Below, piece after piece: positions 9,795 through 51,604 of a stretch of DNA of 64,000 bases; the first letter of the stretch is position 1, and each line of letters opens with the position of its first letter. A model generated the notes under the pieces. That model saw only the letters and a program-made list of their open reading frames with translations, had not been told where the DNA came from and made no database searches. Source of the stretch: Yuukianura sp. NJ FZ-2021 (lineage: Eukaryota); assembly GCA_046563655.1 (NCBI GenBank), contig CM102288.1, positions 2,356,001 to 2,420,000 of the forward strand, written 5' to 3'. The translations under genes were made by a program, and so were the position numbers.

Positions 9795-10644
9795 AGTTTT
9801 TTTTTTGATACATTGTTTGTACATTCGATTTTTACAGGTCATTGACCTTAGCTAACACTAACGTTGTTAAACTTAACGTACTTTAATCAAGTTAGCCGCA
9901 TTAATCCAGTTTCAACTTCGCTTTTTTCCTGGTTGCAAAATTTTTGATTCATTTCTAGCGTCTAATTCTAATCGGTGATTGAGAATTTACAAAACAAGCA
10001 AGGTTTTTAGCCAAATATTTGTCTTAAAAAGTCAATTGTTTGTCATGTTCCGTTTTCTTGTTTCTTCTGCGCAAATTTTAAACAATTTCAAAATCCTAAT
10101 CAAAGAGCGATAATTTTCAAAAAGTCACACCTCCACGTGCTTGTTTGTTTTTAGTTCGTACGATCCTCTTTTGGTGCATTTTTTTATGTTGACTGTTTTT
10201 GAGACTAACTCGTAAAGCTGTTGTCGTGGTTTAGACTATCTGAGATCTAAGCATCTTGAGGTCAAAGGTCACATAAATAAGGTGATTAACCTCTTGACCT
10301 CTTGCAAATTTATGGTGTTGACTATATGATGAAGCTAACACAATTTCAAAATCTCAAGGTTCCGTCTCACTTCTCACAGTTTGTTCAATCAATGAACAAA
10401 CTCACAGCAAACAGATATTTTTTTAGCGCAATTTTAAGTGAGGCCTCATTTACTTTTAATGGTGAATGTTACAATTTCAAAATCTTTTAATAAAAAACCA
10501 CAAAGCGTATCCAAAAGTTTCGAAATTTTTGAAAAACTGGTTACTTCAGAACCAAAAATAGCAGCGCTTTGATAAACCAAAATTCAAAAACTTTGTTTTT
10601 ATTGCTCCATATTTTTCAAAAAACACTTTTTACACTTACGTTTT

Positions 10645-11661
10645 TTAGCGCGATGTGTGGAACAGTGTCCACCAGTAAACAATCCAGGTGACAATCGGTA
10701 GAAAAATGAGGTCAAGCAGAAACATTAGATAGAAAATTTTGGCGCGCAATTTGAGCATGTAGTGTGTCGCAGGTATTGGAAGGTTAAACACATCAGACCA
10801 GAATCCAATTAATGCCCCAATGAAACCAACCGCTGCGCACACAGCATTCACTTGGCACCAGTATTTCCACTCTGCATAAACGGCCTGGAAGAGGTCAAAG
10901 GTCAAGGTCAATGACCTTTGGGCTTTTCACTGAAAAATTTTAAGGAGTCCTTACCAAGGCAAAAGTGGCCATTTGAATACTTCCAACTGCAATGGCAACT
11001 GACACTGTGAGGATCCATTTGTCCAGTTCATTTGCAAAGCGACACTCGTGTGTCAATGCCCAAGTAATGACTGGTGGATCAAAAGAGATCATGTTAAAAT
11101 GGCATTGGGTGTGCCGTTGACGCCAGTCCACCATGAACATGGCTGATGCCACGACTAGAATCCCTCCGACAGCCTAAATTATGTATACAAGAGGTTAGGT
11201 CAGAAAAAGTAAGAGGTCAGAGGTCAAAAGGTCACCAGAGACACGACAGCAAGTCGTTGATGTTTGTCCAAGTACAGAGACTGGATCGGTTCCAACTCAT
11301 GGACACTTTGACGCATGCGTCTTCGGCTGACGGACATTGAACGCGAAGAGCGGGAACGACCGCTGACTGACTCGGAACCGGACGTTGTACTAATCCTGGA
11401 AGTCATCGATTCTCGACTGTCATCCGGAGGAATTATGACTACGACGTCCTTTTTGCCCTTTTTGCTGTCCTTTTTGTCTTCTTTGCCCTTTTTGCTGTCC
11501 TTCTTGTCTTCTTTGTTCTTTTTGCTGTCCTTGCTTTTGTCCTTTTTGTCTTTGCTCTTTTTGCCGTCCTCGACCTTCCCCTCGTTTTCCCCATCCACTT
11601 TTGCCTTGTCTTTGTCTTCGTCCTTGCCCGTATCTGGTGGTCCATTGTTTTCGGACGCCAT
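10645..11661 (-). CDS. Divergent member of the 4-TM family with a Lys/Asp-rich N-terminal extension (3 exons)
   Basis: Spliced RLAVVSL|AVGGILVVASAMF...IQMATFAL|AVYAEW; both phase-0 introns fall at the same positions as in the + strand paralogs; four hydrophobic segments; KKDSKKGKED-type repeats. Confidence 0.75.
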
Positions 11662-11958
11662 TTTTTGAAGTTCGTTTTACTCAGCGACTCAAGCAAACTG
11701 TCACTTTTCTGTCAAGAGTTGTGTCAAACGTATGCGTAAGCAAATAGATGGCAGCAGCAGCGAAGCGCCAGTGAATTCGAGCAAATTCGGTTTTTACTTT
11801 GTTTTTGCCCCAATATTCAACGAGTACTGGTTACTACGGAAATCTTTGGGTCAATATTTGTGATTTTTTTTTGGACTCAAGGTCAATCATCTCTTCCCAG
11901 TTCCAGATCCCGATTTCAAAAGAATTTTACAAGTTCCGCAGTGTATCTGTTCGGGACC

Positions 11959-12863
11959 ATGGCCATGGAGGCCAAACTGATTCTAGCCGCCGTGTCACTA
12001 GTAATATTATCGTTAGTACTTTTAACTTTCGATTTCAATTGCGAATGTCGCAAGATTGCTAACTAACATTCTTTTTCAGGGTTTCGGAATGACCCTCCTT
12101 GTCATGTCTTCCGTTATGGTCCACATCATGAAGTACAATGACAAGGTGTATCGTCGCTTGGAAGAACGGGGATGGACTATAGATGAGCCTATCCCAAGAG
12201 GGACTAAAAACGGGACTAACACAGGATTGACTCATATTGGGACTAACACAGAATTGAGTAAAAGTGGGACTAACGCAGGCGGGACTACACGTCCAACAGA
12301 AACTCAGAGATACAAAGACAACTACGATGGCGTCCACGCTGCGTATTCCCTTGCTCTCATCGTTTCTATTCTGCACATCCTGGCTTTCGTGATGGTAAAA
12401 GTTACATAAAAGTTACATAAGTTACATAAAAGTTACATAAAATGTTAGTTAGTTTTGTTTTTGATTTTGAATCTGTTGGTCCAGGTTTCTGTCAAAGATG
12501 ACTTGTGGCTCCCCTGGTCCGGAATCCACATTGGCATTTTCGTTTTTGCGTTGGTCACTTTCGCACTCTCCATTGCTTACAAAGTTCAGACGAAACCGGG
12601 TGATGCTGATTACGGTATGGACCGAAGTGAATGAATATTCTAATAAGTTATGTTATTTTAATTATTATGTTTTTATATAACTTATTTGATTAATAATGAT
12701 TTTAACAGGACGCAGTCCTTCGAAGGGCCAATGGTACAACTTGTTCCCTGCTGGGTTCTTGGGCATTACGTTTATCGTCATCATTGCATTTGACGTCGTG
12801 TTTTCAATCGTAGCCGCCGTGGCTCCATTCCTGTTGAACAAATTCCGGCCTAACCAAAATTAA
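11959..12863 (+). CDS. Uncharacterised 4-TM membrane protein, paralog A (4 exons)
   Basis: MAMEAKLILAAVSL|GFGMTLLVMSSV...YKDNYDGVHAAYSLAL...AFVM|VSVKDDLWLPW...|GRSPSKGQWYNLFPAGFLG; open frame across GT-AG introns; stop at 12861. Confidence 0.85.
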
Positions 12864-13061
12864 TTTCAGAAATGACTTCTTTTTCAAAATTTAAAATTCC
12901 TAAAAATTCCAAATTTTCAAAAATTTGGTTCTTCTGAATACTAAATTCTGAAATTCTGCGTATTTCGCCATCTTTAGCTGTCTGATTGCGGAAATTGATT
13001 TTTGAAGTGTATGGGATTCAAATATTTTTGAAAATATTTCAAAATTTTCATCTTCCGGTTC

Positions 13062-13076
13062 GTTTCTGGGGACAAC
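13062..13076 (+). promoter_or_regulatory. X-box-like (RFX) motif upstream of paralog B
   Basis: GTTTCTGGGGACAAC fits RYYNYY-N1-3-RRNRAC and recurs upstream of paralogs C, D and E. Confidence 0.55.
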
Positions 13077-13256
13077 TTTAGGATCTCTGCTTAGTTTGTT
13101 AAAAATTTCATAGCTCACTTTTTTGTGTAGAAAATTTCCAAAAAACTTTCACTTTTCAGCGATTTTGGTTGATGAACTTCTGAAATACTGCACTATTCTC
13201 ACATTTTTTTTCGGTTTTGGTTCAGACTTGATCATTGGCCACCATTCTTCGGAACA

Positions 13257-13973
13257 ATGGAGGTCAAGGTCATCCTTGCCGCCGTGTCACTGGTAACAAT
13301 TGGCAGTATTTGCCAGTACTCCTGGCCTAACCTAATCACTATTCTTTTAATTCCGCAGTCTTTTGGAGGAATTCTGCTCGTTATGGGTTCCGTTATGGCT
13401 CGTTCGACAGGATTCGTTGACACACAGATTCAACAAAGCTCGCCCAATTGGACTCAAGCGAGTGACAAAAGATACAAGAACAACTACAACGGTGTACAGG
13501 TTGCTAACTTCGTCGCTATTGGCTGTGCTGTTGTCCACATCGTAGCATTTGTTATGGTAAAAACATAAAGTGATGAGTATGTTAACCTTTGACCTAACTT
13601 TTCTTTTGCTATAGGTTTGCGTCAAAGATGACCTTTGGCTGCAGTGGGCGGATGTTCACTTTGCCACTAGCATACTGGCACTCAGTGCTGGAATTGTGGC
13701 AACAATTTTCCAAGCGTATGCTTTCGTGCCAGCGCTTGGCAGTTCTATTCGTATGACTCTACACCCATAAGCATCCGAATGTTTAGAATTGACGTTAATT
13801 TTGTGATTGTTGTAACTATAGAGAAAGCTACTGTTACGAACGAAAAAGGATGGTCGAATCTGTTCGGCCAAGGCTACTGGGGCACGGGGTTCATCGTCGT
13901 CGCTGCAATTGACGCCATATTTTCAGCTGGCTGTGCTGTCGGTACGATTATCGTTACTTTGATGGAGGACTAA
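13257..13973 (+). CDS. Uncharacterised 4-TM membrane protein, paralog B
   Basis: MEVKVILAAVSL|SFGGILLVMGSV...YKNNYNGVQ...AFVM|VCVKDDLWLQW...GYWGTGF; same exon layout as A. Confidence 0.85.
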
Positions 13974-14049
13974 AAACATAAGTTATAAAAAAGAGACAAA
14001 TAAAGTTGAATTTTTGAATTCTAAAAAGTGAAAGTTGTTTTCACTAGTC

Positions 14050-14064
14050 GTTTCTAGGGACAAC
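14050..14064 (+). promoter_or_regulatory. X-box-like (RFX) motif upstream of paralog C
   Basis: GTTTCTAGGGACAAC, about 210 bp before the ATG. Confidence 0.55.
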
Positions 14065-14272
14065 CCGTAGGTCACTCTAAGTTTTTGTTAGATTTGAAGG
14101 TCATCTTTTTTTGAATGTCCTACAATTCAAAAAAAAAAGTTTGCTATTCAGCGATTTTCTAAAAGCAGCTTTCTTCGGTATTGCTTCGATTCGATTCGTC
14201 GATTTCTCGTCGAGTTTTGGTTTTCGCGTAAAACAGACTCTGTGATTGGTTGATCATTAGTCGGTCGGAACA

Positions 14273-15118
14273 ATGAAACTCAAATCGATACTTGCTTCCG
14301 TGTCGCTGGTAAGTCTTCGCAACTTTCTAACTTCGTAAATCCGCGTGACCTCGTAAAAACCTGCTAACCTTGTAACTCCGCATGACCTCGTAACTTCTAG
14401 TGACCTCGTAAACGTCTCGTAACCCCAGAACTCATTCAGTATTTGCTTAATTGCGCAGTGTTTCGGAGGAACTCTGCTTGTTTTGAGTAGTCTTTTGGTG
14501 CAAACGACAGTGGACACTAGAAGCGAAGTATTGCGTGATGGCGGAGGGAAGGGGTGGACTAAAGACGTAGACAACAGATACTGGGACAACTACTACGGTG
14601 TCCAGTCTGCTTATGCCCTCGCTCTTGTTGCTTCGATTCTCCAGATTGCGGCTTTTGCCATAGTAAGCTTGAGCTAAAGCAGGTTAATCTAAATTAACTA
14701 ATTTCAATTAACAATTAACCTACAAACATATACTTTTGTCCAGGTTGCCGTTAGAGATGACTGGTGGCACAGTTGGGCTGGACTTCACGTTTTCGCAATC
14801 TTGCTAGCAATCACCGCTTGTATCGTCGCCATTGCTTACAAAGTTCAGACGCCACCTCGTGATAAATTTGTTAACGGTTAGTGTTGAACACGTATTTGTA
14901 ATTAATCAAGTAATTAAAATTAGAGTGTAATTGAATTTTGAATTTTGCATTCCGGGTGTTTAGAACTAGATCTTGTCAAGGATCTGAAGGAGGATTGGCA
15001 CAATGCGTTCAATGCTGGGTTTTGGGGCGTTACGTTCATCGTCATCGGTGCTTTTGACGCCATGTTTTCAATTGGCGCCACCGCCGCTGTTTACTTGGTC
15101 AAAGAACGAAAATCGTAA
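14273..15118 (+). CDS. Uncharacterised 4-TM membrane protein, paralog C
   Basis: MKLKSILASVSL|CFGGTLLVLSS...YWDNYYGVQSAYALAL|VAVRDDWWHSW...AGFWGVTF; same exon layout. Confidence 0.85.
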
Positions 15119-15340
15119 AAGAATTTAAGAATTCTGAAACTCCCGGTTTGTACGGATTTCAAAAACGTTTTATACTCAACTCGCTGCTTATAAATGGACA
15201 ATTTATTATTAAAAGTAATTTCAAACCGATTCCACCTATCTTTTTCTGATTGATTGATCATGTTTTTGGAAAATCTCAATTCCATGAATTGAAATTTTGA
15301 AACTGACGAGCTAAAAACTGAAATCTATTTTTCATCAATG

Positions 15341-15404
15341 GTTTCTGAGGACAACTTGCAAGTGATTGTTGTTTAGTGTTTGTTAGTTATGAGGTCAATG
15401 ACCT
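15341..15404 (+). promoter_or_regulatory. X-box-like motif plus perfect IR1 nuclear-receptor palindrome upstream of paralog D
   Basis: GTTTCTGAGGACAAC at 15341-15355 and AGGTCAATGACCT at 15392-15404. Confidence 0.55.
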
Positions 15405-15582
15405 CATCTCAGTTTGTTTCATTTTTGTGTCGAAAAATTTCAAAAAGATTTGAGAGTTATTCAGCGTTTGACCTCCACCAAGTCCGACCTCTTCTTTGTA
15501 TCGCTTGGCTCGATTTGTCGTCCAATTTTGGTTCTTGCGTAAAACAGAGGCTGGTGATTGCTGATCATCACTGATCGGATCA

Positions 15583-16325
15583 ATGGAAACCAAACTGATC
15601 CTTGCCGCCGTGTCACTGGTAAAATATAGCCAGTATACTTGATAGAATCATAATTGCAGTCAGCGATTGATTTTAGTCTTTTATTCAAGGCCTTCGGAGT
15701 GACTCTACTGGTTATGTCTTCAGTGCTGATTCGCCATACACAATATTCTGACAAACCATATCGCGCTCGTATCGATGCAATGAAAAGTTCGGGTGTAAAG
15801 CTGTCGGAAGGGCTAAAGGAATACGAAGATAACTACAATGGTGTCCAGGCTGCTTACTCCCTCGCTCTGATTGCTGCGCTTCTTCAGATCCTGTCTTTTG
15901 TCATGGTAAATGAACCAAGTTCACTTATGGTAAAAGTTGTTAGTTTTTCATTTTTAAGAAACGCTTTTTCTTGTTAGGTTTGCGTCAAAGATGACTTGTG
16001 GCTTCCGTGGACTGGAATTCACGTTGGTGCTTTCGTATTTACACTCATCGCTTGCATTGTCGCAATTTGCTACAAGGTTCAGACGTCACCTGACTCTGGT
16101 AAGTACTGGTACAGTTTTAGTAATTATCATGAGTATAATGTGGAAGTTCAAGTTTAATTACTAATTGAATTGAATAATTATGAATATTTTAAAATAATAG
16201 AATCTAGCGGGACGTGGCAGAATGTGTTTTATGCTAGTTTTTGGGGTCTCGCTTTCGTCATCGTCGTTGCATTTGACGCCATTTTTTCAATCGCCGCTGC
16301 CATCGGAGCGTTCATGATCAAGTAA
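15583..16325 (+). CDS. Uncharacterised 4-TM membrane protein, paralog D
   Basis: METKLILAAVSL|AFGVTLLVMSSV...YEDNYNGVQAAYSLAL|VCVKDDLWLPW...ASFWGLAF; same exon layout. Confidence 0.85.
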
Positions 16326-16615
16326 AGCAGAAGTCTAATCCAAATCAAACTTTTTAAAATTTCAACAAGATTTTCACACAAAAACAAACCTATTCGAAAT
16401 GTCTAACTTTTCCTTACACCACTTGACGTGTATTACGCAAAATTTCAACATTTTGTTTTTTGAAAAGTAAATGTCTAAATTGCTACTGTTTCGACAGTAA
16501 TTTTGAATTTTTTTATTTTATTGTATGTTGAATTGGTTAATAAATCTTGAATTGCGTACAGAAATGCTCTAGCACCTATTTTAACCGAGTGATGATAGAA
16601 TACTTTTCATCAATG

Positions 16616-16689
16616 GTTTCTGAGGACAACTGTACTAAAGTAGTAGATCGCTGTTGTTAAATTTTTGTTAGGTCAAAGGTCACTGACCT
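16616..16689 (+). promoter_or_regulatory. X-box-like motif plus overlapping DR1/IR1 nuclear-receptor sites upstream of paralog E
   Basis: GTTTCTGAGGACAAC at 16616-16630 and AGGTCAAAGGTCACTGACCT at 16670-16689. Confidence 0.55.
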
Positions 16690-16869
16690 CTTTCGTCACT
16701 TTGAGTGTCAAAAACTTGAAGAAAAAACTTTGGCTTTTTAGGCTATCGTTGCTAAGCAGCTATCGGCTCGGCATCGTTCGCTCCGATCCGTCGTACACTT
16801 TTTTCCGGCTTAAGTATACAGACGTAAAACGGAAACTGATCCACCAATCACTGATCTCCACTCGGAGCA

Positions 16870-17703
16870 ATGGACACCAAACTCGTTTTTGCCGCTGTGT
16901 CACTGGTAAGACCTCGTCAGTTGTCCTGGACAGCTAGATTTCCAGATCATACTTTCTGAAACATTAGACCTGACCTAAGGAATGGACTATTCCACTGATC
17001 CGCCGATACTGAATCTTCTGACTCCAAATCAGCGGAACATTCTCTCCCTAAGGTTAATTTTGATTGTAATTTGTTCCAGGGCCTTGGAATGACTCTAGTG
17101 GTTTTGACTTCAGTGCTCATTTGCGAAAACAAAGTTAAAATGGACAGTCAATTCAGCACACGTAACAAATGGTTTGGTCCATTCCATGGAGAAATAAGAG
17201 ACAACTACTATGGTGTCCAATGTTCTTATGCCTTGGGACTGATTTGTGCTTTGCTTCAAATCATGGCTTTTATTGTCGTATGAAACCTACTCTAACTTTG
17301 TCAAATATCAACTTAACCTTTGACCTTTGAACTCTCATTTTGATTTAGCTTACGGTCAAGTCTTACCAGTGGACTGCTTTTGGCGCAATCCACCTTGTTA
17401 CGTTCTTACTTGGACTCATTTCGCTCATCCTCGCATGGATTTACCAGGTTTACGTACAGTTTGATCGTGATGGTAAGATTTACAAAAATATGTTATGGAT
17501 TACTTTAGCCAATTGAATAAGTTTAGTTAACTTTTAGCATTTTCCAATGTTAATGTTAAAATTTAGACAAAATCGATGCCAAGTGGACGAACCACTACAA
17601 AGCTGGCTACTGGGGCGTCGCCTTCATCGCCGTCATTGCACTTGACGTCTTCTTGTCACTCGTTTGTGCCATCGCGGGTTTAATGGCGTCGCGATTAGAC
17701 TGA
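16870..17703 (+). CDS. Uncharacterised 4-TM membrane protein, paralog E
   Basis: MDTKLVFAAVSL|GLGMTLVVLTSV...RDNYYGVQCSYALGL|LTVKSYQW...AGYWGVAF; same exon layout. Confidence 0.85.
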
Positions 17704-18143
17704 TTTAGCTGAAACGAAAATGGCGGGAAATTTTCAAACTCCGTTTTCCAAGAATTTCAAAATGTCGCATTCCTATTTTCCCGAATAAACTATGTACTAT
17801 TGCAAACCCAAAATAAAAGTTTTTCGAAAATTTTGTGCTTCTTTAAAAGTTAACGTTTTTTCTGTAGTTTTATACGTTTTGACCATTTCTTTCAAGTTTT
17901 GAGCAAATTGCGAAACTCTGGAAATCCATGAAGCGTGGGAACCATTTTTGTTTCGGAACTCAAAATTTTAAGTGATCTGGATCATGTCATAATTAATTTT
18001 CTAATTTTTATGGTCACGTGATACAAAATTTGTTTCTGGAGCATGACAAGTTGAAATTTTGTTAGTTGACATTCCCAGTTAACTTAAATCTTGACACGGA
18101 AGTCTATCCACTTTTAGTCACTTTGAAAATTGAAATTTTGAAA

Positions 18144-19887
18144 ATGGGCGACATTTCAATTTTGAAAAGAATTCAAATTGCAGTTTTAGCTCTGCTTATC
18201 TTCATATCATTTCCATTGATATTTTTAAGTTTCATTCCAATTTTCGTTTTGCGTTACTTGACCAGTTTGCTCAAACGTGTTCTGCGTCCTGACCTTGGAA
18301 ATCTGCTGACCGCTCGTTCGTGCATATTTGCTATAGATGACCTCTGGACAAATCCGAACGGTACCATCGTTGTGTTCAATATTTTTCAAGGTCACATGAC
18401 CCTTGACACTGTTCGATCAACTTTCAAAACGAGGGTACTTAAGGGCTCCAAAACCGGAAGCTGCATTTACCCCGAACTGCTGCAGTACCCCTCTACCTGG
18501 ATGGGGTTCCATGTCTGGGTACCGGAGGCTAACTTTGACATAGATCAGCATATTAAGCTCTATGACGGTCCGGTGACGGTGGACGGATGGACGGATTCCG
18601 TCATGACTGACGTCATCAACGAACTGTGTCATAGACCGTACACTAACGGTAAAAGTCCGTGGGAAATGTATCTGATACCGAGTTGTGGATCCGGCGATAC
18701 CGAAAACAAATGGGCTCTGATTATAAGAATTCATCACTGTCTTGCCGACGGTTACAGTGTGTTGAAACTGTTCGAAACTGCCCTAGATGTCGACAAAAGA
18801 CGAGAAATACGGAAGTATCCGAAACGAAACTTTTTGTCGGTTTGTGTTCGTGCCATAACATTCGTTTTTAAATTTCCTTTTGATTTGGCTAAATTCCAAG
18901 TCATCCAGGATCCGATCGGTCCATGGCGCATACCGGAAGAGAAAATGTCAAAGGTCAATGCCCTATCATATACACCTAAAATTCCAATGACGCATGTCAA
19001 ACAAATCCGAGATGCGCACAAGGTGACGATTTCTGGAGTGATCATGACTGTATTCACGGGAGCTTTGCGCAGAATCATGAAAGAATCGGGCAAAGGAGTT
19101 CCGAAATCGGTGCTAGCCGTGACTCCACTTCCGATTCCTGGGCATCCGAACAAGATGAGGAATTATTTGTAAGATTATCTTAAATAAATTTAATAGTTAT
19201 ACAATTTAATTAGTTTAATTTAATTAAATATAATTAACTTGACCCTAGTTCGGGCATGGGGTCATCAATTCCCATTGGAGTTGAGGATCCGCTGGACAGA
19301 CTGCGATTGATTGAACGTGAAATCAAATCGTTCCGAAAATCGACACTCCCGCTTTTTAATTTTTTGATGTCCAAAGTACTTGGAAGTCTTTATGCAGTAT
19401 TAATCAAAAAGATTTGCAAACATAGGGGAGTTTCAGCAATTTTCACATGTTTTGCGTAAGATTTTCAAACAATTAGGTGAAAAAGCTTTTGTTTCAAGTT
19501 GAAATTACGTTTTCGGGTTTCAAAATTTTAGTGGGACACAAATTGATGCAAGATTTTATGGTGGTAGTGTCCTGCTGCTGGAATCAGCGTTTGCTGCCGG
19601 TTTCAACGGTGGCGGAGTTGGTAAAAATAGTTATTTTTTTTTCTTGGAATTAGATTTTCTAAAAGTTATAATTTCAAATTTTTAATATAAATGCGAATTT
19701 CCGTTTTTTTATGGTTCAAAATGTTTTAGGCATTGGATGTTTTGCAATCACGTGTAATGGAATTCTACGCATAGGATTTGGTTTAAATGAAGCGATTTTG
19801 TTTAATGCTCAAGCGTACACAAAACTGTTCACGGAATACGTTATGCTGGAATTGGACGCTTTGTCACAACATGGAGATACTGTTTGA
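18144..19887 (+). CDS. Wax ester synthase/diacylglycerol acyltransferase (WS/DGAT) family, copy 1
   Basis: Catalytic HHxxxDG motif (RIHHCLADG) preceded by SPWEMYLI; N-terminal TM segment; C-terminal DPLDRLRLIE region; 4 exons. Confidence 0.88.
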
Positions 19888-20145
19888 TTTTTTTGGTCAA
19901 AATTTCTGCACATTTTCAAAATTTCATTAGTTCTTGTGAGTAAATTGCGTAATTCTGGAAATCCATGTAGCGTGAGAACAATTTTTTTACGGAAGTCAAA
20001 ATTTTGTGTAATGTGATCATGTCATTAACTAATTTGTGTCTATTTTGAATTAGGATAAATTGGATTTTTGCTTAGTTGAAATTCCTGACACGAAGAGTTT
20101 AGTAAGCATAGTGTTTTCAGCTTGAAAATTTTGAATTTTTGAAAA

Positions 20146-21866
20146 ATGGGTGACATTACAATTTTGAAAAGAATTCGCATAATTGTGTCAGCTCTGTTCA
20201 TCTTTATATTTCTTCCATTGATATTTTTAAGTTTCATTCCAATTTTCGTTTTGCGCTACTTGACCAGTTTGTTTAAACGTGTCCTGCGCCCTGACCTTGG
20301 AAATTTGCTGACTGCTCGATCATGCATATTTGCTATTGATGACCTCTGGACACATCCGAACGCTACAATTGTCCAGTTGACATCGTTCGAAGGTCATCTG
20401 ACCCTGGACGCCCTTCGGTCAAGTTTCCGGGCAGGGGTACTTAAGGGCCCAAAAACCGGAAGCTGCATTTACCCCGAACTGCTGCAGTACCCCTCTACTT
20501 GGATGGGATTCCATGTTTGGGTACCGGAACTTAATTTTGACTTGAATGAACACATTAAGCACTATGACGGTCCAGTGACGGTGGACGGATGGACGGATTC
20601 CGTCATGGCTGACATCATCAACGAACTTTGTCATAGACCATACACTCACGGTAAAAGTCCTTGGGAAATGTATGTGATACCGAGTTGTTCCGGTTCGAAC
20701 GATACGAAACCCTCAAGTTCCGACAACAAAGTTCCGGAAAGCGCTCTAGTAATAAGGATTCATCACTGTCTCGCAGACGGATTCAGTTTGCTGAAATTAT
20801 GGGAAGCAATCGGATTGGTCGAGAAAAGACGACCGAAACCGACGTATCCGAAACGAAACTTTTTGTCGGTTTGTCTTCGTGCCATAACTTTTGCCTTTCA
20901 GGTTCCATTTGATATTGCAAAGTGTCAACTCATCCAGGATCGGATCGGTCCATGGCTATTACCGGAACACAAAATGTCAAAGGTCAATGCTCTTTCATAC
21001 ACTTCCAAAATTCCAATGACGTATGTCAAACAGATTCGAGATTCACACAAAGTCACGATTTCTGGAGTGATCATTACAGCTTTCACGGGAGCTTTGCGCA
21101 GAATCATGAAAGAATCGGGCAAAGGAATTCCAAAAACAGTGCAACTCATCACGGCACTTCCGATTCCGGGGAATCCGAACAAGATGAGGAATTATTTGTA
21201 AGAAAGTGAATTAAATATAACTTAATTAAATTATATAATTTATTTAATTGTAATTAATTGAATGTTATAGTTCAGGCATGGGGTTGGCAATTCCCGTTGG
21301 AAATGAGGATCCACTGGACACACTGCGAGTGATTGAACGTGATATGAAATTGTTCCGAAAATCGACACTTCCGCTTTTTAATTTTTTTGTGACCAAAGCA
21401 CTCGGAAGCCTCTACGCAGTACTTATCAAAAAATTTTGTAAACACAGTGGAGTGTCAGTACTTTTGTCAAATTTTCCGTAAGATTTCCAAAACGAAAAAA
21501 TTTTCAAAATTTGATTGCCAAACTTCAGCTTCTTGTTTTCCGGAAACTTTCAGTGGACCAACAATTGACGCGAGATTTCTTGGAATCCCGGTGCACGAAT
21601 CAACGTTTATGGTTGGTTTCAATTCGGGTGGAATTGGTAATTTCAAAATTTCAAAAAAAAAAATCTTGTTTTTTAAAAATTTTCTTAAAATTTTTTCAAA
21701 TATTTTAGGTGTGGGAGGTTTCGGAATGACGAGCAATGGCTACTTGCGACTTGGATTTGCCTTAAACGAAGCAATTTTGCCAAATGCAAAACCATACACT
21801 AAACTTTTTACGGAGTACGTATTGCTCGAACTGGATGCTTTGTCACTGCATGGAGATGGAGTTTGA
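20146..21866 (+). CDS. WS/DGAT family, copy 2
   Basis: RIHHCLADG, SPWEMY, SNFPGP; close paralog of copy 1 with the same introns. Confidence 0.88.
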
Positions 21867-22427
21867 CCTTGTATGACCTGGGAATTCCAAACCTCAACTT
21901 TCACATAGTGAGGCAACAGGCAACACAATGCTATAAAGTCAAAAACTACCAAACACCTATAAACTCTTAAGTTTTCACTTCAAAATTTCGAAAGAAAACT
22001 TTATTGAGGAAATTGTTGTCTTTTGTTAGCCTAAAACATAACATTGCATAAAGGTCAGCGTTAAGGTCACGTGTGTTAATAAAGGTCAACAGAGAGGTCA
22101 TTCTTATTCTCGCTTTATGTAGGGCATTAGAAGGTGTAAATTTTTTGAAAAATTTCGATTTTTTTAATTATGACACAATAGTTACACGGAAGTTGACCTC
22201 GCGTGTCAGCAAAACGGAATGTCTCGTTGCTAAAACTTTCTAAAAAGCTAAATTGTGACATTTTCTCATAGTTTTGGAAAAGTTACATCGTAATTTCCTT
22301 TTGTGTTCTAAAAATTTAATTGTAATTGTCAGTTACCTAACTCCATTTCCGTTTTAAACTCAATTTACTAAGACATTTTTCAATTTCCGTGTTAGTTTGA
22401 AATTGTAAGTCAAAGAAAGCACCAAAA

Positions 22428-24139
22428 ATGTGCAAACTAATCCTAAAAATTGTGCTAACAATTTTCTTGTACCTCTCACTTCCATTTCTACTTTCCTTTT
22501 TTTCGTTAATTTTGATCTTTAGGTTTTGTTTTTCCAAAATTTTGACAAAATGGGATCCTACGTTAGGAAAAATCTTGACTACACGAAGTTCTGGAGCAGC
22601 TACAGACAAAATTTACGAAACACCCACGATGACTTTAGTCACAATTTCAACTTATGAAGGAACAATTGATTTTGAAACACTTCGCACCGAATTTGAAAAT
22701 CGTGTTGTTTTTGCACGAAATGAGGCTGGTGATCTCCTTCGTCCAGAACTTAGACAGTACACTACTAGACGCTTCGGTTTTACTTTTTGGAAGTACGATC
22801 CAAATTATACGATTAACAACCATGTTAAAGTTTATGATGGACAGTTCAAAGATGTTTATGCAAAAGCTGACTGCGTCACTCCAGAAATGGTTTTGGCGGC
22901 AACCGAAGAGTTACTTTATGGTCCATTCGTATCCAAACGCTCACCGTGGGAAATGCACGTCTTTTATAATTACCGCGATTCTCCCGATTCGCCGGTTTCT
23001 ACCGCTTTGGCACTCCGAATCCATCATGTCCTCGGTAAGTTTCAAACCGGTACTCCGGTACAAACCGGTTTTGATCCAAGAGTTTTGGATTTCTTCGGAA
23101 TTGCTGATTTTGACTTTTTACAGCCGACGGATTTTCAATTCTTGGCATCACGAAGGATTTTCTGAACGAAACAACCGAAAAGCAGGACGATTCTGTTCCG
23201 CTTTTGCAAAAAGTGACAGAAGCTTTGGGTTTCTTGTTTGTAGCGCCATTTCAATTTGTTACTGAAACGCTGAATGGCAATGACCCACCAACTTGGAAAG
23301 TCGACGAACACAAAATGCGTAGAACTTTTAACTTCGGAGTTTCTCCAATGATTCCTTTGGAAAGAATCAAAGAAGTACGCAGAATCACAAAATCCGGTTT
23401 CAACGCAGTCATTTTAGAGTGTTTCACGGCAGCGTTGAGACGGTTCATGGCTGAAGCTGGACACAAAGTTCCGAAACGTGTCCATTGTATCATGCCTTTA
23501 CCGATGCGTGGACATCCTGGAAGAAAAATGAGAAATCACATGTAAAATGTCTCACTGTGCCCCAATTTATGTTTGAAACTGACCTTTGACCTCGTGTTAA
23601 TTTTTTGTTTTTAAGGACGGGATGTATCACGCCACTTCCGGTTGGCACGGAAGATCGCTTAGCGAGACTGCGCCAAATCAACCAAACATTGGTTGACCAT
23701 CGACATTCGACGTATCCAACGAATCTTTTCTACTCAATGGGATTGGCTGGCGGAATGTTCCGAAAAATGGCGAAACCATTTGCTGCCAATACGCTAACTT
23801 CTGCGCTCATGTCAAATTTCCCGGTAAGTAATTTTTTAACTTCGAAGTCAGAAAATCTAAGGTTAAAGGTCAAATTATTCCAAAATATCTAATTTTTAGG
23901 GCCCAGACAAACCTATGGCATTCAACCAGCATCCTCTGCGCAGTTCGTACTTTAGTGGCGGTCTCTTCCGTGGAACTTGCGCAATGGGCTTTTCTGGACT
24001 TAGCTGCAACGGAAACATCCGATTTGTCTTTGGAATGGACGATGCTTTAGTTTCCAGAGATACACTTCCAGCATCACTCATCGTCCAGTACTTCCTGGAA
24101 GAGCTGGAACTGCTGAAAACAACAGCTAATTTAATTTAA
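22428..24139 (+). CDS. WS/DGAT family, copy 3 (more divergent)
   Basis: SPWEMHV, RIHHVL(A)DGFS split by intron 23035-23123, MSNFP|GP. Confidence 0.85.
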
Positions 24140-42652: not shown

Positions 42653-44034
42653 TTATCGTACAACAGTATTCCAGAGGTAGCCGATTGAAATCACTATTAT
42701 GAAGGTTTCCTTAGCACCATTCTTGACGTAGTACTTTGACATTGTTCCTCCTCCGGTCATGTCCACTTGATGTTCGCTTGTCTCCGGTTGAATCGATACC
42801 GTTTCTCGAACCGGGTCAGTGTCACACCCTCTACGAATTGACCCCACGGTCATTGCCAGTGTTATGGCAGTTCCTTTAGTGGACTTGCTCTGGATCGCTG
42901 GTTTCTGACTCGTGTTAGGATTGTATAGACAGACTGTGTGACCACTTAAGTCAGTTCCACTGAAGATTGTCCAGTTTTTAGTTCCCACGAAAGAGTAAGA
43001 TCCGAAGGGCAGTGGCAGGGGAAGGCGCAACTCTAGGCCATCAGTAGTAAGTCTCTCTCCGGTCTGGTTGACCTCGCGGAACAACAGAAGAGCCTGGTGG
43101 ACATGGGGCCCTTTGACCCGTGACACGGATTTCCGTCCATCTTTGATCATAGAAAGAAATACAAAGTGTCAGTTTCAGCGATTGGTCACTTGGATGCTAA
43201 AATTTCCTTACGTCTTGAAGTACATCCGCGCTGAATTGACCCGAGCGTGATGGTAGTTCCTTTGTGGACGAAAGAAACAGGTTTATGCTGAGCAATTAAG
43301 CAGGAGGATCCTCCAGAAAAGTTGGTCAGCGGAAAAACAGTCCAGTTATCCCTGGAAATTTAAAAAAAAATCAAAATTTTGACTAAATTATGGAAAATTT
43401 TGAAAACCGGGTAAACCTGGCAGTGAACCCGTAAGATTTGAAAACGTAGGGAGAGGGAAGGCGGAGATTCGTTCCATCAAAGTAGAGCTCCTCCCCTTGA
43501 AAAGCTGTAAACAGACAAAGATTAGTGTTTTACGGTTTTCAAAATTTTGAACATTTTTTTTTTCAAAATTCAAAATTTAGTACCTTCGGCAGTGAACAGA
43601 CTTAGGCCAGGTACGTCCAAGTAAGCATTTCCGACGAGTCGTATAGATTTGTACTGAATAAAGGCTCCGCCCCCGGCAGATGCCGATGACCCGCAGTTCC
43701 CATGCAGGTCATCGCTGTTTCCTTCATAGTAAATTCCACCTTCACTGTGGTTTACTCCCCGAGACAACGCCCAACTATTTATAATTCCAAAAATTTCAAA
43801 ATTTTGAAAAAAGAATTCAAAATTTTTAACTTACAGTCCATGATGAATACTGAACGACTGCATTTGATTCTGACTCACTGTCATCGACACAGCACTTAAA
43901 TTTCTCACGTTTTTATCGTACTGCTCACTCTTCCCTTTGCAGCAATTTTCCGAAAATATTGACAACTTTTGCACCCTGAGCGCCTCTGGACCACAGATTA
44001 GCGTTGTGATGATCAGAATCCACGAAGGACTCAT
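42653..44034 (-). CDS. Secreted or GPI-anchored protein with three beta/gamma-crystallin-like domains (5 exons)
   Basis: Signal-like MSPSWILIITTLICG; repeats such as SLFTAEAFQGEELYF...NWTVFPLTNFSG...CL...LGSIQRGC and NWTIFSGTDLSG...CL...VGSIRRGC; hydrophobic C-terminus. Confidence 0.7.
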
Positions 44035-45723
44035 GTTTCTTTTCCAGGTCAAAGGCCAACCCACGAACTTTTGAGCTTAAATTTTGAAACTTGTTACTCC
44101 CGCTCTCTAATTCTTCATTTTCAAGGCCATGTTTGAGCCCTGGAAAGTTTCTGGAGGCCCTCTGGCAGTTAAAATCCAGGCCGGAAAGTGTGTCACTTTC
44201 TCCCACGTGTAAACTCACAATGACTTTCTCCAGTCGCCTTCTCCATACGGCTCCACTGGGGTAATAAAAAAACCAAAAGCCAAAAACCTACGTTCAGGAA
44301 AGGAGAAAGTTAGTGTTTGGAGGCTTTATACAAAAGTGGGCCAAATATTGATCTGTCTTCCCTTCCAGAACAGAGATCCACTGCTTCTGATCCTAGAGAG
44401 TGCGAAAACAAGAAACACGATTCGTGTTTGACTTGACACAGAGAAAGTGAGAAAATGAGGCTATTTTTATTCAATTTCTCAAATTTTGGAACATCATCAT
44501 CATATCTCACTTGTTCATAAGTTCATGAATTATGGATCATAACAACCATACTAATAGACTCCAAGCGTCAAAGCAGCTGCGCTGCACGCCAAAAAAAAAA
44601 CCGAATTTTGACAAGGGAGAAAAGTAGGTCATTTAGATTTTTCGGAAAAAAAAGAAAAGTAAGAAAGAGAGAAAAGGAGAAGAAAAAAGCTTTTCTGCCG
44701 AAGAAAAAAAATTGCAGACAAAATCATGTTTTTCAATGGGAAAAGTTCCAAAAATTCCTAAGCGGCGTTTAAATCTGTGACGCATAATTTCACATGGTGA
44801 AGATAATTTTGAAAACTTGCTCCTAAAATTTTTGGAATATGTTAAAAACTGAAATTTTGTTCAGTTTTTGACGGATTTTGAATTTTTGAATTTGCTGCCC
44901 GTTGTATATACTGGTCTAAAATTATTGACGTTTTATTCGTTACGTTTTCACATCATTACACATGTTCATGTTTACATTTTTTTTTACATTACATAGTTTT
45001 ACATTTTTATATTACGTCATCATCGTTTTTTACTGTATTACTTTGTATATTTTTACTATTATGTCTAAGCTTGCAGGTCATAGGTCAAGGTCAGGTCACC
45101 GATTACTATTCGTACTTATGCAGAATTATAATCACATGTTTTCAAAATTTTGAAAAGGTACACATTTACTTTAAGGGAACTAGAAAGAGACTAGGATTTT
45201 TTAAATTTTGAAAAATTTCAATCAGTCCAATTTTTTGAAAAACGAAAAAAAAAATCCGTATAACGTTCTTCAGTCTTGTCATTCTTACTTGATCGTCCCT
45301 TCATTACCATCGTTTGTACGATATGACTTGTACAATTACCAGTTTGTACACAATTTGCACAAATTTTGAAAAAAATTGCAAATTTGCAAAATTTTTGAAA
45401 TGGACATTCCGTAAAAGGTTCCGCAGGGAAAGCTTTTGCAACATCGTTCGACATGCGCTTCAACAATTTTTTTTTAAATTTTTTGAAACTAAATTGCGAC
45501 TGGACTAAATATTGCATAAATTTCTTAAGCATGTCGAAGAAATTAATTTTGCAACTTCATAATTCGCAAAATCAAAATTTTGCAAATTACACTTTTTTGA
45601 GAAAAAGTGGATTTTGGAAGATATGGCAGTAAAATTTTTTTGAACAATTTTTAAATAGTAGTCTTACTCTTCCTTTCCATTTTTTAAAATTTGTTAACTT
45701 GCAATAAGTTAATCGTTAATTAA

Positions 45724-47110
45724 CTAATCATTCATAACTGCAAACCTAGCCGAAAGCAACATAAATCCAATTGCGACAATTCCGTTTTGCGTCAATTTTG
45801 GCCCCGCCCCATCCGTCGTCCCGCCGCCCCGCCCCTTAGCATTTCCATTGTCACTTGTCCCTCCCCCCACCTCATTATTGCTTTCAACCACACCTCCTGA
45901 CCCCTGACCTTGCTCACCCCCCAAAACATCCCCACCTCCCCCACCCCCACTCACCCCCTCCTGTGGCCCACCCCCTACATTTGCCCCTCCCACTCCGGCT
46001 CCACCCCCTCCCGCTCCGACTCCGCCCCCTGACCCCGGCTGTCCCCCCTCAGGCATCACCGGTACTTCGTTTTCAATCACTTGACCTTTCTCCATTCCCG
46101 TCTCCTTGACCCCCTCTCCACTTTCTCCAACCCCGGCAAATTCAAAGGAAGTACTGGCAACACATGCTTGTTGAACGGACGAGATGCTGAATGGTCTCGG
46201 AGTGGGAATATTCGTAAAGACGTAGTTGGCTCCGCCCACTTCGCGATCAGCCACGAGACATTTAGCGTCACCTTTGAAATCTGGTTTTGAAAATAACGTC
46301 CAAGGAATCCATTTTCCCGTCAATTGAAACGAACGCATGGCAACTGCATATGGAAATCGCGTTTCTCGGCCGTCAGTGTACGCTGACTGCCCCGCAGCAT
46401 TTCGTTCTGACCAAAATTGCACGCCTGAAAGAGCTCCACTTCCACGTGACCTCGGTTTCGGACGAACTGAAATCCACAACAAAATCGGTTTTTAGAAAAT
46501 CCTTTTTGAAAGTTTGAAAAACAACTTTTGGGGTCAAGAGGTCAAAATACAAGAATTTGTGTTAGAAATTAAAATTACCCATAACCATTGAGTCGTTACA
46601 CCAACAGCCACGTCGAATGGAGCCGACCGTGATGTCATGCGCACCGTTGCCAGTTACGGGATGTCCAGGATCCGATAGGAGACACATCGGACTTCCGCTG
46701 TAGTTTGACCTTGGATAAATCGTCCAGTTGACCCCGCCTTTGAACCGATGACTCTTCGTTTTAAACGGTTGCGGAAGACTGAGTCCGTGTCCATCAAAAA
46801 ACAGTTCGGCTCCTCTGAATTCCTGTTCAGCCGACATCGATATCGCTGGAGAGTTGGGGTCAACGTCCTTGAGAAGATGCTTCGGAGCTTCGCTGATTGG
46901 TTCTTCATCGCCCAGGGGCATGTCAATGACAAAGTCTCCGTGATCTTCATGTTCCTCATGTCCATGATGGAATTCGGCAGAACCAAGATGTGCTTCTTCC
47001 TCTTCCGAAGTGTAATAGTCGTCCTCCCAAGTATAATTGTGAATGTGGCTGCCAAGGACAGAGGTCAAGAGGACCAACAGCACTGTGAGAGTTGTCCAGC
47101 GTGTGTCCAT
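45724..47110 (-). CDS. Secreted or GPI-anchored protein with two beta/gamma-crystallin-like domains, His/Glu patch and Gly-rich stalk
   Basis: Signal peptide MDTRWTTLTVLLVLLTSVLG; NWTIYPRSNYSG..CL..VGSIRRGC and WTLFSKPDFKG..CL..ISSVQQAC; Gly-rich linker; hydrophobic C-terminus; paralogous to 42653-44034. Confidence 0.75.
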
Positions 47111-47692
47111 GGTGTGTCCAGAAACCTTATCCAGAAATGCCTTGTGTCCTCTACGTCTTGTGTTTATTGATTGACTGCTTCCCGTCCAATTGTGGCTCAT
47201 GAGAGACTCTCTCCTGGATGGCGAATGGGAATGGGGTTCGGGAGTGTTTGGCCTTGGCCCATTTCCTGCCGTTCGTCTAGCATCTCTAAGTAAGTGAAAC
47301 TACCAAAACAGCATCTCTGGAACCTGCGCAATTTTTTTTGCAAAAAAAAAATTGCGAAAGTGTGCAAAAACTGGTCTGCCAGACTCCAGAAGTAAACAAA
47401 AACAGAGACGGAACTACGAAAGACAGGAAATTGAAAAGGGCAAGCAGGAGATGAAAGAAAATGTGTCATGCTCTTGTGAGAAACTTGAAAATAGAAATTC
47501 GAAATTTCTGAAATTTTGAAAACACTTCATTTTTCAACTTCGGAATTCAAAATTTCATTTTTGAAATCCAAAGTCTCCTATTATGTCTACTCGGAGGATA
47601 CTCAATACCGCATGAAACTACAAAAACTTCCATCAACAAAATTTCAAGAATAAAAATCGGTTTAATTTTATACAACGTAAAAGTTATCGCGA

Positions 47693-48434
47693 CTATAAAT
47701 TTTTTTGAAAAAATAGAACTGCTAATAGAATCATTAGAACTTTGCTAATTTGCAAAAGACTTGCTGAATTGCAGTAATTGCTATCACAGTAACATACATG
47801 TTCAAAGTCAGTTATGTTTAGGAGCGTGACGTTGATTGGCGGAAGTTGCAAAAATCCGCAGCCAAGGTCATGTTGCCTCCCAAGCGCCGTGGAACTCAAA
47901 GCGCAGCCGCGTTGAACCGACCGCCTAAACTTCTGAGACGGATTTTCTTCTGGTATATCCGGAGGTGGGAGGGCATAATGCGTGACCATTTTGGTACAAA
48001 AGTAACGCAGATCGCCTTCGTCGCTTTCTGGACATGTCACTTCATACAAGTACTTGGAAGGACCAATAGGATTGTCAAATTCGTCACAAGACTCCAACTG
48101 CAGAACGTCAGCAGCATCTTCCGGTGTATGAGTATTGGCAGTATAAAACTCGGAAGTATCCCGACTACTGTCGTTTGTCCTTCCAGCACCAGTTGAAGGT
48201 GTCAGAGTTCCACAGCGGTAGCAGGTCAACGCCCATCCTTAAAAAACAAGTTAGAATTGTTAAAAATAGAGCTCCGGGCAGGATTTGGAACATTTACGGT
48301 ACTTTTACACTTTCCACGGCCCTTTGTGCTAAAATTGTAATGATAATTGAAATTTTCATATTAAAAAGATGTTAGTTACCCGAGAACAAATTGGAAAGTA
48401 GGAAGATCGTGAAAGTGGGCCATGTTATAACCAT
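47693..48434 (-). CDS. Ly6/uPAR three-finger GPI-anchored protein (quiver/sleepless-like)
   Basis: Signal-peptide exon, LTCYRC start, FCTK, QRGC, CYCDSNYCN followed by a hydrophobic tail. Confidence 0.85.
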
Positions 48435-49455
48435 TATGTGCCAAATTATTTCTAAATTATCTTTTCAATTTAAAAACACAATTTTGAAAGAAACTGTGTC
48501 ACTGCACTTTCCAAATGCTAAAAACTGAGGAGACACAGTTTGAACCAAGGCTGAGTTAAATTAATAGTGCAAATGAAGTGTTAATTGTGAAGTACTAACT
48601 GACGCCTTCACTAAAAGTGTCAAAAGGAAGAGAGATAAATGGGAAACTCAAGGAGCCAAGATAAACACCAAGCAAAAACAGGCCTAACTTTAACTTTTAA
48701 CTTAACTTTTTAATTTCTAACTAAGCTAGGATGAACTTTTTCCTTCTTGTGACTAATTACTACAATTTCTTGTTAATTTTGGCGTATTGTATCCTCAGTT
48801 ATATTCTAAAGTTACACCACAAAATATAATATACATAAGGAAAACCACATTCACGGCCACAAATTCCTTAGAACACTAAACAAAGTTATGTATAGTAAAC
48901 AGAAATTTTGCAATTTCGGAAACTTGCGAAAAAGTAATCCTATTTTTAAATTCTAAGCAAGATTTTTGCATGATCTATTTTTGCATGTTTTGGGATCTGC
49001 AGATTCTAAAAGTGGAAGATCATTCAGAAGTTGGACAGAGATGAGTCACTTAAGTAGGTGTTAGTTGTACTTCGTTTGAGTCAATAAAGACATAATGCGA
49101 AGCAAGCTGTTTCGAAATTCTGAAAAATTTTGAAAGTTGACTTATTTTTTTAAAATTTCAGGTTTTCGATAGGATATTTTAGTAGCATTGGGAATTGAAA
49201 TTACTTGTGGAGCGGAGCGGAGGTGAACTGGAATGTTTAGAATCAGTCTGATGAGTTGTGTTGACTTTTTCTAAAAATTTTAATTTTTGAAAAACTGTAG
49301 ACATGAAAACGAACACTGAGGAAGCCTCCAATGAGTTACCGCAAACATTCCCAGAAGGAGCGTGCCGCTGGTCAAGGTCACATGCCAGACTTCGCGAAAA
49401 AAAAAACAGACATGGTTTTACTTTCCTTGAAGTCGTCATTTAGAATTGGTTCAAA

Positions 49456-51321: not shown

Positions 51322-51604
51322 TTCTTTTGGAAATTCGGCAGTATAGTGAAAGGTAGAATCCGGGAGATAATAGAACTATTACGGTAGAGCTAAAAAAAAT
51401 CCGAGTTTTTAAAATAAATTTCTTGTATCCATGTGAACGTTGACCTTGTGACCTTCGTAAATAGAAGTTGTTGAAGTGAAATACCTAGTCAAAGTATTTG
51501 AGAAAATTTTTGCAATTTGTCAATTTTATAAAAAAAAAATTGATTCACGTCAGTCAGTCCAGCAGCATAGCCTGTCAGATTTTCTGCGTACAACATTTGA
51601 GAAA

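Follow-up and report, generated by a model that had tools for sequence, protein, structure and literature searches.

Proteins of the PMP22/EMP group usually have a first loop that exceeds the second in size, both their turn and their tail are short, and the signature of the PMP22/claudin proteins in loop 1 consists of W-GLW and a Cys pair. MS4A proteins have four transmembrane (TM) segments and are encoded in tandem arrays; some of their extracellular loops are variable, their cytoplasmic tails are sizeable and their first loop is short. Tetraspanins combine short termini and a small first loop with a large second loop carrying a CCG motif, and occur in tandem clusters in insects. The Pasiflora/Fire exit proteins (DUF4728) are core components of septate junctions in Drosophila. 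Here, we describe an array of six genes at positions 10645–17703 of a 64-kb stretch of contig CM102288.1 from Yuukianura sp. NJ FZ-2021 (hereafter the window), comprising five head-to-tail genes on the + strand (G1–G5) and one gene on the – strand (G0). The array was confirmed as a genuine family of related genes, beyond chance, and we tentatively read it as an old tandem array of taxon-restricted small tetraspans that may act as a membrane-organising or junction-type scaffold rather than as receptors. Among described systems, PMC4582180 portrays Pasiflora proteins as chains of 169–258 amino acids (aa) with four TM segments, in which a signal peptide is lacking and the first loop is the larger one; absolutely conserved are PW at the start of TM3 and, at the boundary of TM4 and the C-terminus, VxSQYQ (Pasiflora1) or VxS (Pasiflora2). 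According to the same source, members of the family are only about 15–23% alike, the wider family has only the PW in common, and the PMP22/claudin superfamily has a signature motif in loop 1. One Pasiflora/Fire exit member carries the Pfam domains DUF4728 and Mtp, as stated in 10.1101/2024.04.13.589362.

Gene models were derived from stop-to-stop open reading frames (ORFs) and the raw sequence and were checked by script. They bore out the five head-to-tail genes and one divergent gene of a first-pass annotation, whose end coordinates, 10645 and 17703, correspond to the stop codons of G0 and G5. On the + strand, G1 (11959..12863, 213 aa) consists of exons 11959–12000, 12080–12394, 12485–12614 and 12709–12863; G2 (13257..13973, 173 aa) of exons 13257–13292, 13359–13556, 13615–13750 and 13822–13973; G3 (14273..15118, 175 aa) of exons 14273–14308, 14459–14662, 14744–14876 and 14964–15118; G4 (15583..16325, 165 aa) of exons 15583–15618, 15690–15905, 15978–16098 and 16201–16325; and G5 (16870..17703, 164 aa) of exons 16870–16905, 17080–17277, 17349–17472 and 17567–17703. 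G0 (10645..11661, – strand, 294 aa) has three exons (11236–11661, 10955–11173 and 10645–10884) instead of four, and its start is separated from the G1 ATG on the opposite strand by 297 nucleotides (nt). All 17 introns, which span 58–174 nt in G1–G5, have GT..AG borders, and the reading frame is intact in all six genes. In G1–G5 the intron phases are 0, 0 and 1 at identical alignment positions: intron 1 interrupts TM1 after ..VSL, intron 2 follows directly on TM2 and intron 3 falls within the second loop. The two introns of G0 match introns 1 and 2 in position and phase 0, but intron 3 is missing; the claim that all six genes share their intron positions thus holds for three of three introns in G1–G5 and for two of three in G0. 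The array is flanked by genes for a trehalose-phosphate synthase and for WS/DGAT-like acyltransferases, and parts of it are covered by contigs of two DNA runs (two organisms). Two first introns show peculiarities of their own. Intron 1 of G2 (13293–13358, 66 nt) is in frame and free of stops, so that exon 1, intron and exon 2 form one ORF of 130 aa, and its retention would add 22 residues to TM1. Intron 1 of G3 contains an 18-nt tandem repeat (14333–14412, 4.4 copies) with TGACCTCGTAA units, which looks length-polymorphic because contigs of one DNA run carry 19-nt deletions at 14345 and 14396.

Pairwise protein identity among G1–G5 amounts to 32–58% (41% for G4 and G5), and G0 is only 16–19% identical to these five proteins. 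Scored against a profile hidden Markov model (HMM) of G1–G5, G0 nevertheless reached 16.7 bits, a value that none of 1000 shuffled sequences attained (maximum 6.6), whereas the reversed sequence scored –0.7. On the strength of this score and of the two common intron positions, we accept G0 as a distant member of the family. Its first exon encodes an N-terminal tail of 135 aa that is rich in Lys, Asp and Ser and contains 30-nt tandem repeats at the DNA level. With the G1–G5 profile and every filter disabled, a search of all 2691 six-frame ORF pieces in the window recovered all 15 exons 2–4 of G1–G5 at E < 1e-12 and four first-exon pieces at E 0.03–0.23, the first exon of G2 being part of the ORF piece of its exon 2. 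No match at E < 1 was obtained outside the cluster, and there are therefore no further copies in the 64 kb.

A 19-residue hydropathy scan gave four hydrophobic segments in six of six proteins, in line with the annotation, and the DNYxGV-like motif reported before TM2 of the + strand copies was found in all five as [DN]NYxGV; it is absent in G0. Four of the five + strand genes have V[KR]DD in the short turn that follows TM2. As for the proposed W-x-N-x-F-x-x-G-F/Y-W-G-like block before TM4, its W-x-N part is invariant (5/5), but the subsequent G[FY][WL]G is only approximate. Three membrane columns are occupied exclusively by polar residues in G1–G5, namely Gln or His in TM2, His in TM3 and Asp in TM4. 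G0 has an aligned Asp in TM4 and an Asn at the position of the TM3 His. These residues sit in the inner half to the middle of TM2–TM4, the three not at one predicted depth. The invariant columns of the exon alignments comprise the juxtamembrane motifs together with the intramembrane His and Asp. To our knowledge, a conserved intramembrane His and Asp is no feature of the PMP22/claudin superfamily. Apart from the two loops, the non-membrane parts of G1–G5 are restricted to an N-terminus of 4–6 aa, a TM2–TM3 loop of 8 aa and a C-terminus of 3–10 aa. Loop 1 measures 33–72 aa including the conserved 12-aa motif and is longest in G1; loop 2 measures 24–34 aa and contains no Cys. Loop 1 exceeds loop 2 in four of the five + strand genes (33 vs 34 aa in G2), and N-glycosylation sequons are present in loop 1 of G1 and G2 only. 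Loop 1 would face the extracellular side because the charged 135-aa tail of G0, which has no signal peptide, should stay cytoplasmic, and by analogy with other tetraspans. Counts of Lys plus Arg in G1–G5 were 6–14 for loops 1 and 2 together vs 2–6 for the N-terminus, short turn and C-terminus, which are far shorter segments.

The topology agrees with the PMP22/claudin-like arrangement named in the annotation: G1–G5 have about 160–210 aa, four TM segments with TM1 at the N-terminus, a short turn between TM2 and TM3 and a short tail, and in four of five the first loop is the larger. Equally correct was the statement that W-GLW-C-C is absent. None of the five + strand proteins has the Cys pair in loop 1, and G0 has two Cys residues there (Cys 166 and Cys 186) but no GLW, which sets both apart from the PMP22/EMP/MP20/claudin families (PF00822, PF13903). 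With MS4A/CD20, the cluster has the tandem arrangement of four-TM genes in common; it differs in the 3–10 aa termini and the long first loop of G1–G5, and in that PF04103 gave no match on the pieces searched. Tetraspanins (PF00335) resemble our proteins in having four TM segments and short termini, but the loop sizes are reversed and loop 2 is here a Cys-free stretch of 24–34 aa. More features are in common with the Pasiflora/Fire exit proteins: a small four-TM protein without signal peptide and with a larger first loop, the occurrence of a short form next to a long one (169 and 258 aa in that family; 164–213 and 294 aa here) and a very high divergence among members. At the start of TM3, PW is present in two of the six proteins (G1 and G4), followed by QW in G2, SW in G3, YW in G0 and AF in G5, so that Trp is found in five of six. 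None of the six, in contrast, carries VxSQYQ or VxS at the boundary of TM4. Pasiflora/Fire exit is the closest published description that we found and serves as a lead; the likeness is one of resemblance, and membership is not established.

All homology searches were conducted with exon-sized contiguous pieces (40–105 aa) or alignments thereof, and profiles of 47–67 positions are blind to relatives at 20–30% identity. A Pfam scan at E ≤ 10 of 19 distinct pieces, i.e., every exon of at least 40 aa in the six genes and one in-frame read-through, yielded no relevant match; in particular, PF15860 (DUF4728), PF03821 (Mtp), PF00822, PF13903 and PF04103 were not matched. Matches to CcmD, Tc3 HTH, Deltameth_res, DUF5362, two holin families and a P5-ATPase were below the curated cut-offs and were dismissed as unrelated TM noise, as were equally sub-threshold, low-complexity matches on the tail of G0. 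Sequence and profile searches of the PDB, for which two exons of G0 and three exon profiles served as queries, returned nothing relevant; rejected were two designed proteins (E about 4) and a TspO chain that matched 22 TM3 residues at E 0.04. In a word-indexed collection of 5.8 billion clusters, searched among longer proteins, exon 2 of G4 produced 258 candidates, none of which reached E ≤ 0.01, and the exon-4 alignment of five genes produced 5455 candidates with none at E ≤ 10. HMMER searches with the exon-2 profile over 1.84 billion representatives gave a single match (E 5.3e-05) and no arthropod protein. This match proved spurious, being a 485-aa soluble repeat protein that aligned to profile positions 26–49 only, in six stretches. 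Metagenome scans with the exon-2 alignment and with exon 2 of G4 alone led to 19 and 375 pattern matches, respectively, none of them confirmed. In the ESM Atlas, exon 2 of G4 scored at best 0.84 (unnamed clusters), with MARVEL and claudin-TMEM179 clusters at 0.77–0.78, all below a meaningful level, and exon 3 of G0 had no usable match. Within the window, no Rfam family attained its gathering score. As a control, a neighbouring acyltransferase ORF retrieved 1610 candidates, of which 17 proteins lay at E ≤ 0.001; the best of them were 28% identical, and the best named relative came from the springtail Allacma fusca. Arthropod proteins are thus represented in the collection, but the control shows no close annotated relative of the organism there, and the negatives from it are therefore weak. 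At the sensitivity of these exon-piece searches, which gave no Pfam, PDB or collection match, the family is unrecognised, as the annotation had it.

Conservation of the proteins is lowest in the first loop. Its variable, non-motif part comprises 60, 21, 23, 27 and 21 aa in G1, G2, G3, G4 and G5, respectively, and the length of about 25–65 aa given for this loop by the annotation came close to the 33–72 aa with and 21–60 aa without the motif. The extra length of G1 stems partly from the expansion of a 27-nt tandem repeat within exon 2 (12202..12279, +, 2.9 copies, 78% matches), which codes for a stretch rich in Gly, Thr and Asn. The mean pairwise proportion of nonsynonymous differences (pN) was 0.24–0.39 in the four TM segments vs 0.59–0.60 in the two variable loops (0.60 in loop 1). 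Set against the synonymous proportion (pS), mean pN/pS was 0.72 in loop 1, 0.92 in loop 2 and 0.42–0.83 elsewhere, and thus below 1 in every region. Pairwise synonymous divergence (dS) among G1–G5 ranged from 0.72 to 2.03, at or near saturation, and the G1–G4 pair differed at 55, 36 and 83 first, second and third codon positions (165 codons), a bias towards third positions. The dS values together with pN/pS below 1 indicate that the duplicates are old and that every copy is under some constraint. Diversification at the exposed surface, a further claim of the annotation, was not upheld: both loops have pN/pS below 1, dS is near saturation and part of the variation is repeat expansion, so that diversifying selection is not shown. 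With paralogues at dS 0.7–2.0 and an unalignable loop, these estimates do not distinguish relaxed from positively selected sequence.

The 297 nt upstream of each ATG were aligned. One conserved block stood out, a 15-nt element of the form GTTTCT-NN-GGACAAC (GTTTCTNNGGACAAC), which is located on the + strand at 13062..13076 (195 nt upstream of the G2 ATG), 14050..14064 (223 nt upstream of G3), 15341..15355 (242 nt upstream of G4) and 16616..16630 (254 nt upstream of G5). These are the only four occurrences of the pattern in the 64 kb, and the element is found upstream of neither G1 nor G0. Allowing up to two mismatches raised the count to 7 sites, where 2.55 were expected; none of 100 shuffles yielded as many. 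In the G4 and G5 units the element is embedded in a 28-nt block (15329–15356 and 16604–16631) that represents their longest exact match, the best coding match being 13 nt. That this block is longer than any coding match, with the two proteins only 41% identical, points to constraint on a cis-element or to local gene conversion. G2–G5 are probably co-regulated through the common 15-nt element. The canonical 14-nt X-box consensus is GTHNYYATRRNAAC, and a scan of the whole window detected none in the cluster; the single match, at 5539, lies inside an exon of the trehalose-phosphate synthase gene, and at least one match occurred in 22 of 100 shuffles. X-boxes have also been described as two inverted half-sites, GTNRCC and RGYAAC, separated by a spacer of 1–3 nt, of which 2 nt is by far the commonest (10.1101/2021.02.03.429678). 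Read as GTTTCT-NNG-GACAAC, the element consists of inverted half-sites with a 3-nt spacer and three mismatches to the strict consensus, retaining the key positions G1 and T3 of the 5′ half-site and A4 and C6 of the 3′ half-site. A loose half-site pattern with this spacer occurs at 6 sites in the window vs 7.4 in shuffles, and 5–12 matches were observed at each spacing of 0–4 nt, numbers close to those in shuffles when the spacer is 1–4 nt. Only the 0-nt spacing exceeded the shuffles (12 vs a mean of 6.3), four of the 12 being the reverse strand of the cluster element. The shared X-box-like motif of the annotation is thus a conserved element upstream of four of the five + strand genes, but it is missing at G1 and G0 and is not canonical. 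It lends the proposed link to RFX and ciliated cells no support, nor does it speak against it, being no canonical X-box and fitting, with a 3-nt spacer only, a half-site pattern so loose that it arises about seven times per window by chance. The window also contains a genuine ciliary gene, coding for radial spoke protein 3 (PF06098, E 2e-36; about 51606–52681), with no canonical X-box near it. A copy of the cluster element with two mismatches at 51580–51594, about 12 nt before a candidate ATG, is within chance expectation.

If the array encodes a scaffold, as we tentatively favour, the proteins would be mostly membrane-embedded four-helix bundles acting in cis as membrane-organising or junction-type subunits. 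Their conserved helices might serve to pack them against one another or against partner proteins in the membrane. The first loop, loose and derived in part from repeats, would adjust surface properties and not recognise a particular ligand, and G2–G5 would be expressed jointly under the common 15-nt element. We favour such a role because termini of 3–10 aa leave no room for signalling domains. Also in its favour are the intact, constrained genes, in which pN is lower in the TM segments than in the loops, the invariant columns in and beside the membrane, a first loop that exceeds the second in four of five + strand genes as in claudin-type tetraspans, the likeness to Pasiflora proteins and the 28-nt block before G4 and G5. 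Several observations weigh against it. The Pfam and PDB searches returned nothing relevant and revealed no homologue among the tetraspan families; W-GLW-C-C and the loop 1 Cys pair are missing from G1–G5, and VxSQYQ/VxS from all six proteins. The Lys plus Arg counts do not settle the topology, and tetraspans with a purely structural role do not usually have an Asp and a His in mid-membrane, a pair that could instead reflect binding of an ion or a partner. Independently of function, the genes may be highly diverged members of a named family, likeliest Pasiflora/Fire exit (DUF4728) or the PMP22/claudin clan, in which case the family would not be new. Size, topology, first-loop bias and the PW or Trp at the start of TM3 fit this explanation, the searches were limited to pieces of 40–105 aa, and known Pasiflora members are themselves about 15–23% identical, sometimes with only PW in common (PMC4582180). 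On the other hand, PW occurs in only two of six proteins, VxS(QYQ) in none, the four corresponding Pfam models remained without a match and the exon-2 profile retrieved no arthropod protein. We regard placement in a named family by a full-length profile, which is a question separate from that of function, as possible though doubtful.

The intramembrane residues bear on two further explanations. The proteins could be accessory or adaptor subunits in which the TM4 Asp, together with the TM3 His, pairs with a basic membrane residue of a partner channel, transporter or receptor; pairing through an intramembrane residue is a notion taken from other small tetraspan auxiliary subunits. The TM4 Asp is invariant in G1–G5 and aligned in G0, the TM3 His is conserved in five of five, the TM2 column admits only Gln or His and there is very little soluble sequence, yet the neighbouring trehalose-phosphate synthase and acyltransferase genes suggest no partner and the exon-piece Pfam and PDB searches gave no similarity to known auxiliary-subunit families. 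We consider such a role unlikely. The same searches yielded no similarity to transporter or channel families either, which lowers the odds of a small four-helix bundle of internal membranes whose His/Asp/(Gln/His) cluster binds or conducts protons or metal ions. Residues of this kind (His, His/Gln and Asp) typically act as ligands of metals or protons, and here they are conserved in the inner half to middle of TM2–TM4, but not at one predicted depth, and housekeeping ion carriers do not typically expand five-fold in tandem with a free-running loop. We hold such a function to be distinctly unlikely. The first-pass annotation had considered a chemosensory or ciliary receptor array of the MS4A kind; it would be driven in ciliated cells through an RFX/X-box element and would diversify at an exposed loop. 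Tandem four-TM genes with a poorly conserved loop agree with this idea, as does the element upstream of four + strand genes, which retains key X-box positions if a 3-nt spacer is allowed; triple spacers have been reported for X-boxes (10.1101/2021.02.03.429678). Opposed to it are the lack of a canonical X-box in the cluster, the near-shuffle frequency of the loose pattern, the absence of the element at G1 and G0, loops with pN/pS below 1 at saturated dS and with variation due in part to repeat expansion, and the missing cytoplasmic tails and CD20/MS4A match on the pieces. A receptor role is improbable for G1–G5, which have almost no non-membrane sequence besides the two loops, and we rate the receptor array as very unlikely. 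Even less probable is the combination of novel, clan-less and taxon-restricted tetraspans, defined by the set of [DN]NYxGV, VKDD and WxN..GFWG motifs and the intramembrane His-Asp-(Gln/His) cluster, with RFX control of four copies through a triple-spacer X-box in ciliated sensory cells and a freely evolving exposed loop open to repeat expansion. Decaying, non-functional duplicates or an artefact of the gene models can barely be credited: no polyadenylation-like signal was found after G1, but all six frames are intact, the 17 introns keep their GT..AG borders with conserved phases, the copies are old (dS 0.7–2.0) yet still open, and the differences within the G1–G4 pair favour third positions. 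As it stands, the cluster consists of ordinary but well-defined orphan genes and holds no evidence for a new class of sensory receptors.

Should the family be unrelated to the named tetraspans, it would represent one more independent tandem expansion of small four-helix membrane proteins. As a diverged branch of Pasiflora/Fire exit, it would instead be a lineage-specific five-fold expansion of septate-junction-type tetraspans. The conserved intramembrane His/Asp pair is unusual and readily testable by mutation, and the 15-nt promoter element offers a handle on the question of which cells express the array.

The window is also rich in AGGTCA/TGACCT hexamers, which correspond in form to nuclear-receptor half-sites. 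A perfect inverted repeat AGGTCA-n-TGACCT is situated at 15392..15404, 37 nt past the upstream element of G4, and the palindrome recurs upstream of G5 (16677–16689, 47 nt past the end of the element) and in intron 2 of G0 (10905–10917). The window holds four perfect copies, or 6 sites vs 0.19 expected when one mismatch is allowed. The hexamer is over-represented across the whole window, with 140 occurrences in 64 kb vs about 26 expected from base composition (about five-fold), for which reason we gave the palindromes no weight. It often forms short direct or inverted clusters (9836–9848, 10892–10917, 11197–11234, 15392–15404 and 16670–16689). In one DNA run the contig depth rises about ten-fold at 10903, which suggests that the hexamers belong to a short dispersed repeat.

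Elsewhere in the window, three tandem genes for WS/DGAT-like O-acyltransferases occupy 18066–23545; their best relatives in the 5.8-billion-cluster collection are 28% identical, the best named one being from Allacma fusca. An uninterrupted ORF of 625 aa with hydrophobic segments extends over 49444–51321 (+) and has no Pfam match at E ≤ 1. On the – strand, the region 42653–48238 includes a Quiver/Ly6-like ORF at 47693–48238 (PF17064, E 2.7e-4, below the cut-off). At least two ORFs adjoining it share a ..VGSIRRGC.. stretch, and one of these shows a weak match to beta/gamma-crystallin (E 0.045).

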